In this document: positions 17,032-19,277 of the stretch, in pieces
Numbering within the stretch: position 1 is the stretch's first letter
Layout of the letters: each line of letters starts with the position of its first letter
Assembly: GCF_988242995.1 (NCBI RefSeq)
Contig: NZ_OZ547043.1
DNA length: 64,000 nucleotides
Direction: 5' to 3' (one strand)
Position numbers and translations under genes: made by a program
The notes under the pieces: model-generated
What the model was told of the DNA's origin: nothing
Database searches by the model: none
The model's input: only the letters and a program-made list of their open reading frames with translations

Positions 17032-17949
17032 ATGGTTCAGAAAATTTTGTCGGATAAGGTTATGAATGAAAGAACAAATGCGTATTACTCTTATTATCTT
17101 GGAGAGCGTAATATCTCCGTACTGCCCCTTAATGTTTATGATCCCCCGGAACGTTTTATCGCTTACATAAAAAAAAACAGAGAAAATCTGAACATCACAC
17201 TTTCAGATTTTGAACTTGAACAAATCATTTCTGGTATGCGTCTGAAGGCACTGGCCTCCCTGGTGCCCCTGGAAAAAATATCCTGGATCGCGGGCAGTGA
17301 ACGCGCATGCTTATTTTCCTGGTATCTGTTGATGCAGTTTATCCAGAATAACAGGACAAAAATAAGCGCAGACTTGCTTCAAAAGAATAAACTGTATCTT
17401 AAAGAAGAGTATTTAGAAGGGAATGCCTTCCCGTCGGACTCATCGACACAGTTCAGACAAATACTCAGAGTTCTCGATATTCTTTCTGATAAGAATTTGC
17501 GGGATGAGTGGATAATCCAGACCAAAGACAGATGGATACGGGCATTTAAATCAAAGAGTCCTTTCAGTTACCTCCTCCCGGAGAACGAACATGAATGCAT
17601 ATGGACATGGAATTATTTGAAGGGAAAAAATATTGCACTGGAAAAACTGGCCAGTTTTCCTGATTCTGCTGATATTTACCACGCAATTCACCTTTCATTT
17701 GACATATGGGTTACCTGTCCACTCACCTCACCTGACGATATAAAAAATTTCAGAAACAGTTTCAATAAGGCCAAGGCGCAGCGCAAGTACAAAAAAATGC
17801 AGGAAGATAAAGTCAATGTACAGTTTTTTCTTGACGCAGAAACCAGGGCGCAGCTCAAAGAATTATCGAGGGTCAGAAGACTCAGTACCGGCGAAATGCT
17901 GCATGACCTGATTGTTGAAGAGTATAAAAGGTACCGACATTCCAGATAA
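17032..17949 (+). CDS. Hypothetical protein in an AT-rich segment (orphan island cargo)
   Basis: 305-aa ORF with GGAG upstream; visibly AT-rich codon usage unlike its neighbours; C-terminus (TRAQLKELSRVRRLSTGEMLHDLIVEEYKRY) looks like a ribbon-helix-helix DNA-binding element. Confidence 0.55.
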   Translation: MVQKILSDKVMNERTNAYYSYYLGERNISVLPLNVYDPPERFIAYIKKNRENLNITLSDFELEQIISGMRLKALASLVPLEKISWIAGSERACLFSWYLLMQFIQNNRTKISADLLQKNKLYLKEEYLEGNAFPSDSSTQFRQILRVLDILSDKNLRDEWIIQTKDRWIRAFKSKSPFSYLLPENEHECIWTWNYLKGKNIALEKLASFPDSADIYHAIHLSFDIWVTCPLTSPDDIKNFRNSFNKAKAQRKYKKMQEDKVNVQFFLDAETRAQLKELSRVRRLSTGEMLHDLIVEEYKRYRHSR

Positions 17950-18033
17950 TTTCAGACATATATTATCTCCGTGAGTCCCCCGCCACCTTTCCGGTGTGCG
18001 GGGGTTTTGTCTTTTTTCACCGGGAATACATGT

Positions 18034-18906
18034 ATGAATCCGTCTGATGCCATTGAGGCAATTGAAAAACCGCTTTCCGCCCTGCCTTACTCACTTTCCC
18101 GTCACATCCTGGAACATCTGCGCAAACTCACCCGTCACGAACCCGTGATTGGCATTATGGGGAAAAGCGGGGCCGGTAAATCCTCACTCTGTAATGCACT
18201 GTTTCAGGGGGAGGTCACCCCGGTCAGTGATGTTCACGCCGGCACCCGGGAAGTGCGGCGCTTCCGTCTGAGTGGACATGGTCACAGCATGGTTATCACT
18301 GACCTGCCCGGGGTGGGCGAGAGCCGGGACAGGGATGCAGAGTATGAAGCCCTGTACCGTGACATTCTGCCTGAACTTGACCTGGTACTGTGGCTGATTA
18401 AAGCCGATGACCGTGCCCTGTCTGTGGATGAGTATTTCTGGCGACACATCCTGCACCGGGGACATCAGCAGGTGCTGTTTGTGGTGACGCAGGCCGACAA
18501 AACGGAGCCCTGCCATGAATGGGATATGGCCGGCATTCAGCCTTCTCCCGCACAGGCACAGAACATTCGTGAGAAAACAGATGCGGTATTCCGGCTGTTC
18601 CGGCCCGTACATCCGGTTGTGGCCGTATCGGCCTGCACCGGCTGGGAACTGGATACGCTGGTCAGTGCGCTCATGACAGCGCTTCCCGACCATGCCGCCA
18701 GTCCCCTGATGACCCGCCTGCAGGACGAGCTGCGCACGGAATCTGTCCGGTCTCAGGCCCGTGAACAGTTTACCGGTGCGGTGGACCGGATATTTGACAC
18801 GGCGGAGAGCGTCTGCATTGCCTCTGTTGCCCGTACGGTTCTGCGCGCCGTCCGTGACACGGTGGTCTCTGTTGCCCGCGCTGTATGGAACTGGATTTTC
18901 TTCTGA
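18034..18906 (+). CDS. YeeP/YfjP/YkfA-family GTPase
   Basis: P-loop GIMGKSGAGKSSLCNALF; start placed at ATG 18034 (MNPSDAIEAIEK…); resembles the GTPases of E. coli cryptic prophages CP4-44, CP4-57 and CP4-6. Confidence 0.8.
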   Translation: MNPSDAIEAIEKPLSALPYSLSRHILEHLRKLTRHEPVIGIMGKSGAGKSSLCNALFQGEVTPVSDVHAGTREVRRFRLSGHGHSMVITDLPGVGESRDRDAEYEALYRDILPELDLVLWLIKADDRALSVDEYFWRHILHRGHQQVLFVVTQADKTEPCHEWDMAGIQPSPAQAQNIREKTDAVFRLFRPVHPVVAVSACTGWELDTLVSALMTALPDHAASPLMTRLQDELRTESVRSQAREQFTGAVDRIFDTAESVCIASVARTVLRAVRDTVVSVARAVWNWIFF

Positions 18907-19024
18907 ACAGTCTGCCAGGGAAATGCCTGATAACATTACGTTAACCAACTGAAAACATGACACAAACACCTCATGCTCCTCCTGTTTCTCTTGCGTGACC
19001 GCCTTGCAATCAATAGAATAAAAC

Positions 19025-19060
19025 GATCGATAAAACAGGTATCGATCGTTACTATCGATC
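19025..19060. promoter_or_regulatory. Antigen 43 phase-variation switch: three clustered GATC (Dam) sites in the flu regulatory region
   Basis: GATC at 19025-19028, 19044-19047 and 19057-19060, each within a cGATCg context, about 220-250 bp upstream of the flu start; matches the known OxyR/Dam switch architecture. Confidence 0.7.
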
Positions 19061-19218
19061 GTTTATAGTGGTTAATGGTCTGCGAAAAGGCAGCTGAATC
19101 TCTTCATCATGCAGAACGGAATTGCACACAACGGACTGATACTTCTCTGGCGGATGAGAGAGGGGAAGCATTTATGCCCGGGAAAAACCACTTTATCTGA
19201 CCATGCTGTTTTGTACCT

Positions 19219-19252
19219 GCCGGTATCCACATTTGTGGGTACCGGCTTTTTT
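19219..19252 (+). promoter_or_regulatory. Stem-loop plus T-run in the flu 5' leader (possible attenuator)
   Basis: gccggtatccac-attt-gtgggtaccggc followed by TTTTTT, 25 nt upstream of the flu ATG. Confidence 0.4.
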
Positions 19253-19277
19253 ATTCACCCTCTGTAAGGAAAAGCTG

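Follow-up and report, generated by a model that had tools for sequence, protein, structure and literature searches.

Predicted Dam/OxyR switch and IsrC-type leader terminator in front of an island-borne antigen 43 gene

The switch that governs the antigen 43 (Ag43) gene of Escherichia coli K-12, agn43 (flu), was reportedly dissected in the studies of Henderson & Owen (1999), Haagmans & van der Woude (2000), Waldron (2002) and Wallecha (2002). At agn43, the OxyR site of the promoter overlaps three GATC sites, for which OxyR competes with Dam; OxyR bound to the unmethylated sites represses transcription and blocks Dam, which yields the OFF state, whereas methylation bars OxyR and yields the ON state, and both states are heritable, with switching at about 1e-3 per generation (PMC3764049, PMC4872104, PMC13337833, PMC2909390). 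Salmonella gtr, opvAB and phage Mu mom likewise carry GATC inside OxyR half-sites, so that methylation and binding are mutually exclusive (PMC2909390, PMC4856963). Those switches differ from the one described below in that four GATCs lie upstream of the promoter in two alternative OxyR sites, and in that OxyR serves there as both activator and repressor, whereas a single repressor site would lie here over the transcription start (PMC2909390). A second element of the K-12 locus is an RNA: the ncRNA isrC (b4435), as annotated in RefSeq, begins at the G of the first GATC site (GATC-I) and extends to the T-run of a hairpin 27 nt before flu. The IsrC entry in PMC5811629 reads "flu gene attenuation", and a passage in PMC5389530, citing Wallecha et al. 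2014 (J Bacteriol 196:2728), calls the control of flu by IsrC "antitermination". According to these secondary citations, a short RNA reportedly ends at the hairpin in K-12 cells, and its termination restricts flu.

The window analyzed here is a stretch of 64,000 nucleotides of contig NZ_OZ547043.1, in which an intact Ag43/Cah-family autotransporter adhesin gene of 948 aa occupies 19278..22124 (plus strand). The 948-aa ORF matched NCBIfam NF033177 (auto_Ag43) at equivalog level, with 1992.5 bits against a cut-off of 1200 and over profile positions 1–948 of 948. In a RefSeq genome whose intergenic region is 100% identical, an Ag43 gene is annotated at this place and, to its left, a gene labeled "GTPase family protein"; the latter corresponds to 18034..18906 (plus strand) of the window, a YeeP-like GTPase family gene that gave only weak matches, all to GTPase families, in NCBIfam and was present beside Ag43 in all fetched alleles. 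The start of the Ag43 CDS in RefSeq is the base equivalent to 19278, in agreement with a Shine-Dalgarno sequence, AAGGA, at 19266–19270 and the start codon ATG at 19278–19280 (both plus strand). The surrounding block, TAAGGAAA.GCTGATG, was kept in all 10 aligned alleles, with a single A/T difference in two ST131-type rows. An in-frame ATG at 19203, with which the Ag43 ORF begins in the ORF list, was rejected as the start codon because it is unconserved.

Elsewhere in the window are speC, a tRNA-Phe gene (6647–6722), an integrase gene (6920–8185), a kps capsule cluster with a JUMPstart element, and a type II secretion cluster. The Ag43 copy thus sits on a genomic island at a tRNA-Phe gene, next to kps, and the gene order suggests that this tRNA gene is pheV. 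The JUMPstart element (Rfam, 53.6 bits; 49324–49362, minus strand) overlaps the beginning of the kpsM-like ORF, which is listed with a TTG start codon, and its position is approximately that expected for a group 2 capsule cluster. Directly downstream of Ag43, an 838-aa ORF (22245–24761) had no match in NCBIfam, is called "hypothetical protein" in RefSeq, and is dense in GATC, unlike its neighbors; in other strains this slot is occupied by a "dynamin family protein" gene or by yeeR.

For comparison, alleles were fetched across the identity range of two genome-wide searches, and 10 were aligned. The leaders fell into two classes, with L001 (K-12 MG1655) and L009–L011 in one and L003–L007 in the other. 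Among 5426 complete E. coli genomes, 3445 had the class of the window at no less than 80% query coverage and 1832 had the K-12 class by the same measure, so that the leader studied in K-12 represents the minority class in E. coli. Elements conserved in both classes were TCTCTTG at the −35 position, TAGAAT, the GATC boxes, TACCTGCCGGTATCCAC-loop-GTGGRTACCGGCTTTTTTATTCACCCTC, and the block around the start codon described above.

The three Dam sites upstream of the gene are GATC-I (19025–19028), GATC-II (19044–19047) and GATC-III (19057–19060), together spanning 19025..19060. Each lies in a CGATCG hexamer (at 19024, 19043 and 19056), exactly as the initial annotation had reported, and GATC-II and GATC-III are each embedded in ATCGATCG. 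The annotation had further equated the trio with the known Dam-methylation/OxyR switch. This identification held up, since the spacing of 19 and 13 bp, the TAGAAT hexamer and the ATCGATCG boxes are all shared with K-12 (sites at 1818, 1837 and 1850 in the MG1655 locus). An alignment with the K-12 agn43 regulatory region, which had been proposed as a check, placed the GATC boxes in register, both in an ungapped comparison and in the 10-allele alignment, and all three sites were present in 9 of the 10 alleles. A pairwise MAFFT alignment with K-12 was discarded; it misaligned the GATC boxes by way of a 13-nt gap, and the register was apparent from the ungapped and 10-sequence alignments.

Clustering of plain GATC sites carries little weight by itself. 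The trio spans 32 bp and is the joint-tightest GATC triple in the window, and with 206 sites in 64 kb about one triple within 32 bp is expected by chance (P of at least one, 0.6). The window has 13 CGATCG sites, and for 3 of them to lie so close together, within 32 bp, is a rarer event (P about 2e-4). The plain clustering is not significant alone; homology to the K-12 switch settles the identity of the element. A second GATC triple, also of 32 bp, is located at 33892–33924 inside a kpsF-like ORF (33568–34587) and fits the chance rate of about one per window.

The putative −35 hexamer of the promoter is TTGCGT (18991..18996, plus strand), which agrees with the consensus at 3 of 6 positions and is separated by a 17-bp spacer from the −10 hexamer TAGAAT (19014..19019, plus strand). 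It aligns with K-12 TTGTCC in the invariant TCTCTTG block, and by this homology it would function as the −35 element. A consensus promoter scan of the control region reported no promoter, as the −35 is too weak, and the promoter is therefore recognizable only through alignment to K-12. TAGAAT was kept in 9 of the 10 aligned alleles, in both leader classes, the variant being TAGAGT in strain LP5-1. It ends 5 nt before the G of GATC-I, as in K-12, where that G is the annotated 5′ end of isrC. By analogy with K-12, transcription would start at 19025. Wallecha et al. (2002) are said to have placed the transcription start at the G of the upstream GATC, which agrees with the isrC annotation. The GATC trio is accordingly located at and just after the presumed start, inside the transcribed leader and not upstream of the promoter, and would form the core of an OxyR-binding region at roughly 19009–19066.

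Scoring against the OxyR consensus, ATAGnTnnnAnCTAT-N7-ATAGnTnnnAnCTAT, gave 13/20 in two registers here and 14/20 in K-12, so that the register is ambiguous and the score does not discriminate; scores of 13/20 or higher were reached at just 16 of about 128,000 positions of the window. The best K-12 register (−2 to +35; 14/20 in K-12) gave 10/20 here by hand count. Binding of OxyR at these GATC sites is plausible. Besides the TTGCGT/TTGTCC difference at −35, the locus departs from K-12 agn43 in several respects: GATC-I reads CGATCG where K-12 has CGATCA, the 7 bp between GATC-I and GATC-II are entirely different (AAACAGG against TCTATTT), the 2 bp between GATC-II and GATC-III differ, the gene class is 948 aa rather than 1039 aa, and the gene resides on a tRNA-Phe island by kps rather than in the CP4-44 prophage. 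The two loci are alike in their YeeP-like GTPase left neighbor and in the gene family downstream.

Closer to the window is cah of Shiga-toxin E. coli. Its leader belongs to the same class, the 371-bp intergenic region being 90% identical, and the allele likewise has three GATCs (−252, −233 and −220), the same terminator and a gene of the 948/949-aa class. It differs in its central leader, with a 1-nt indel, and in its downstream neighbor, which in the cah allele is a dynamin-family gene.

Two natural variants of the control region were found. In L006 (strain LP5-1, about 3718–3737), GATC-I has become AATC and the −10 hexamer TAGAGT, which leaves two switch GATC sites. In L008 (STEC2018-553, 2279–3700), an IS3-family element directly precedes the final part of the leader (approximately 100 nt); it has eliminated the promoter together with the three GATCs of the switch, and the terminator hairpin and an intact Ag43 gene have been kept. 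L008 may represent a natural escape from control by Dam and OxyR.

Such partial losses, the weak −35 hexamer, the divergent interval between GATC-I and GATC-II and the ambiguous OxyR score would all suit a degenerate switch in the window, locked ON or OFF or with a dead promoter, of which the GATC trio is a relic. We regard this as very unlikely, because all three sites, the two ATCGATCG boxes and the full-length ORF have been preserved, and this regulatory type occurs at 95–100% identity in thousands of genomes before intact genes, the STEC cah allele included. The comparisons instead support the presence of a homologue of the agn43-type Dam/OxyR switch in front of this Ag43-family gene, and by homology with K-12 this Ag43 copy is probably phase-variable.

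Downstream of the switch, the initial annotation had described a strong stem-loop followed by a T-run just before the start codon, and the terminator scan recovered precisely this feature at 19219..19252 (plus strand). The predicted intrinsic terminator consists of a 12-bp stem (19219–19230/19235–19246) with 8 G-C pairs, the loop ATTT and the T-run TTTTTT (19247–19252), which ends 25 nt before the ATG. Folded as RNA, the hairpin had a free energy of −23.5 kcal/mol (z = −5.2), and none of 200 shuffles folded as well. Its position is that of the 3′ end of annotated K-12 isrC, just upstream of the flu ribosome-binding site.

The Rfam family IS102 (RF00124) matched 19023–19259 over model positions 1–206 of 206, with 74.6 bits against a gathering score of 46 (E = 1e-12), and this was the sole such match in the window. 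The match points to an IsrC/IS102-type leader RNA at 19025..19252 (plus strand), about 228 nt long if terminated, as the homologue of the 195-nt K-12 isrC. Like IsrC, it would start at GATC-I and bear a 5′ stem-loop (19043..19061, plus strand) formed by the GATC-II and GATC-III boxes (CGAUCG/CGAUCG), which appears in the Rfam consensus structure and in folds of both leader classes. This stem-loop, which any two copies of a palindrome would form, was paired in all 10 alleles with zero variation. The two hairpins together comprise 18 pairs, all of which form in 10 of 10 alleles, with a change from U.G to U-A in the terminator as the sole substitution; with stems so invariant, no covariation was found in the two leader hairpins among the 10 alleles. 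The terminator, its U-run and the downstream ATTCACCCTC are essentially identical to those of K-12 (46 of 49 positions), and the RNA ends 25–27 nt before the ATG at both loci. These data support the assignment of the leader hairpin as a homologue of the IsrC terminator, and by the same homology this Ag43 copy would be subject to attenuation.

That the GATC cluster and the hairpin are mere chance features has in its favor the expectation of about one plain GATC triple in a window of this size. Against it stand the CGATCG statistic, the z-score of the hairpin, the positional conservation of both features across diverged alleles and their match to a curated RNA family. The RF00124 match, the 10-allele alignment and the CGATCG statistic refute a chance origin, whose probability we consider negligible.

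The resemblance to IsrC ends in the middle of the RNA. The central leader segment (19067..19210, plus strand) is class-specific, with 34% identity to K-12 and 84% to the cah allele, whereas the modules that flank it are 92–98% identical and the terminator block of the window is 94% identical to that of K-12. With these 144 nt so different from K-12 and large insertions in the model alignment, the similarity in sequence does not extend through the body of the IS102-type RNA. Membership in IS102 nevertheless stands, because the full-length score exceeds the gathering score, and the divergent body marks a distinct leader subclass. Both classes passed the RF00124 threshold, with 71–77 bits for the class of the window and 252–258 bits for the K-12 class; the central part, which is unrelated to that of K-12 and exceeds it by about 33 nt (RNA lengths 228 and 195 nt), explains why the leader in the window scored 74.6 bits and K-12-type leaders about 250. 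Also absent here is GCCGGACCTCCGGC, a short complementary segment upstream of the K-12 terminator. No conserved ORFs were found inside 19067..19210.

The divergence of the central body bears on the proposal that the hairpin mainly defines a free-standing, IsrC-like sRNA that acts in trans and whose effect on flu is incidental. In K-12 the terminated product is indeed annotated as a small RNA gene, the Rfam class is "Gene; sRNA", and cyoD has been put forward as a target, a speculation from IntaRNA prediction alone (PMC13168525). However, 34% identity between classes would be unexpected in the body of an sRNA with a conserved seed; the parts that are conserved are cis elements, namely the DNA-level switch and the terminator with the Shine-Dalgarno sequence; and the literature searched contained no function for IsrC beyond flu attenuation. 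An sRNA acting in trans is therefore distinctly unlikely, and we favor a leader that acts in cis.

How a cis-acting terminator might be passed was considered for this leader class. No conserved leader peptide was found, as the ORFs from 19075, 19109 and 19203 are broken, through loss of the frame or of the start codon, both in the cah allele and in leaders of the K-12 type, and a translation-coupled leader-peptide attenuator was rejected since no conserved leader ORF lies over the terminator or antiterminator. In partial-transcript folding, 19068–19079 paired with the 5′ arm of the terminator, with a gain of only 3–7 kcal/mol. The duplex was no better than that of shuffled leaders (163 of 300 shuffles were as good for the window and 189 of 300 for cah), and an RNA antiterminator in the leader class of the window was rejected on the ground of this chance-level pairing. 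In K-12-type leaders, complementarity to the 5′ arm exceeded chance only marginally, as 8 of 300 and 15 of 300 shuffles were as good. It follows that, if read-through is regulated in the class of the window, the signal is not an obvious RNA switch.

These results leave some room for a terminator that is a constitutive, unregulated partial stop, with fixed low read-through and no antitermination, which blocks transcription from the GTPase gene and keeps the OFF state tight. The lack of a conserved leader peptide and the chance-level pairing of the 5′ arm would be expected of such a stop; in addition, the hairpin is downstream of every possible upstream promoter, and it was retained in L008, where IS3 has replaced the switch. 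The passage in the secondary source PMC5389530 that speaks of "antitermination" argues against it, as do the complementary segment of K-12-type leaders, which exceeds chance only marginally (the 8 of 300 case), and the consideration that a protein- or translation-dependent mechanism would be invisible in sequence. We rate a constitutive stop as possible but, on the whole, doubtful. Alternatively, the central segment (19067–19210) could carry class-specific read-through control, for example where a protein or a small RNA binds to it. This idea is tentative and rather unlikely; if it were true, the commoner, island-borne Ag43/Cah alleles would be attenuated otherwise than in the K-12 paradigm.

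As a whole, this information leads us to conclude, with considerable confidence, that 18991–19277 is a standard antigen 43 control region of two layers, a Dam/OxyR switch and a leader terminator. The conclusion is based on homology at the sequence level, on elements conserved among alleles, on the match to the covariance model and on RNA folding predictions. What is carried over from work on K-12, and would apply here by analogy, is that OxyR binds, that expression is phase-variable, where transcription starts and that it terminates at the hairpin. In the model that we propose, a sigma-70 promoter (−35 TTGCGT, −10 TAGAAT) would start transcription at or next to GATC-I (19025), and the three GATC sites would lie within the OxyR operator. 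If OxyR occupied the unmethylated sites after replication, both transcription and Dam would be blocked, which would give a heritable OFF state; if Dam methylated the sites first, OxyR would be excluded and the promoter would stay ON. Transcripts of ON cells would begin with a 253-nt untranslated leader, the last part of which is the terminator (19219–19252), 25 nt before the ATG. Because this terminator is strong, a large share of the transcripts should be IsrC-like RNAs that stop here at about 228 nt; Ag43 would be encoded by read-through transcripts only.

Both the switch and the leader terminator are already established knowledge, and the window holds an ordinary copy in the commoner leader variant. 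The value of the comparison is for annotation, in that the Ag43 gene of the island is to be treated as phase-variable and leader-attenuated. Among the matches listed, the 371-bp intergenic region was unannotated in the RefSeq genomes that carry it in full, and it could be given two labels, one for the IsrC/IS102-type RNA and one for the Dam/OxyR switch. A search of the literature for methylome reports of unmethylated sites at pathogenic agn43 alleles yielded nothing usable. For a gene that is phase-variable and leader-attenuated, differences in expression between single-colony cultures are to be expected, and the pitfall that single colonies present with phase-variable Ag43 has been described (PMC3764049).

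In E. coli Nissle, a "massive increase" of the 948-aa Ag43c was reported after plasmid curing, with a mechanism that was called elusive, and the strains compared were grown from single colonies (PMC11056357). Given cultures of this kind, ordinary phase variation of this allele class would be a possible alternative explanation for the rise in Ag43c.

The DNA around the switch is poor in GATC. No GATC occurs in the Ag43 ORF, where 6.5–9 would be expected (about 8 on dinucleotide content, 6.5 when synonymous codons are shuffled), and none of 1000 shuffles reached zero. The ORF was likewise GATC-free in 10 of the 11 alleles examined, K-12 flu and cah included; the passenger-domain halves of the examined alleles were 73–98% identical. 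GATC-free blocks lie at 17290–19024 (1.7 kb), 19058–22159 (3.1 kb) and 25409–30532 (5.1 kb), and the block 22160–25405 is dense, with 27 sites. GATC-free stretches of at least 1 kb are typical of mobile elements, GI-pheV included (PMC4659465), and the GATC-free ORF was rejected as a novelty since this mobile-element pattern had already been described there. The GATC-free flanks might have been selected to isolate the switch from neighboring Dam/SeqA activity. We treat the poverty in GATC as a general property of mobile DNA, with a small chance of a tie to the switch. Other tetranucleotides are also biased in the Ag43 ORF (19278–22124): CCGG is enriched three-fold (47 against 15.6 expected), and TCGA (0 against 6.3) and CTAG (0 against 4.7) are absent, a bias that probably reflects the repetitive Gly/Thr-rich codons of the passenger domain.
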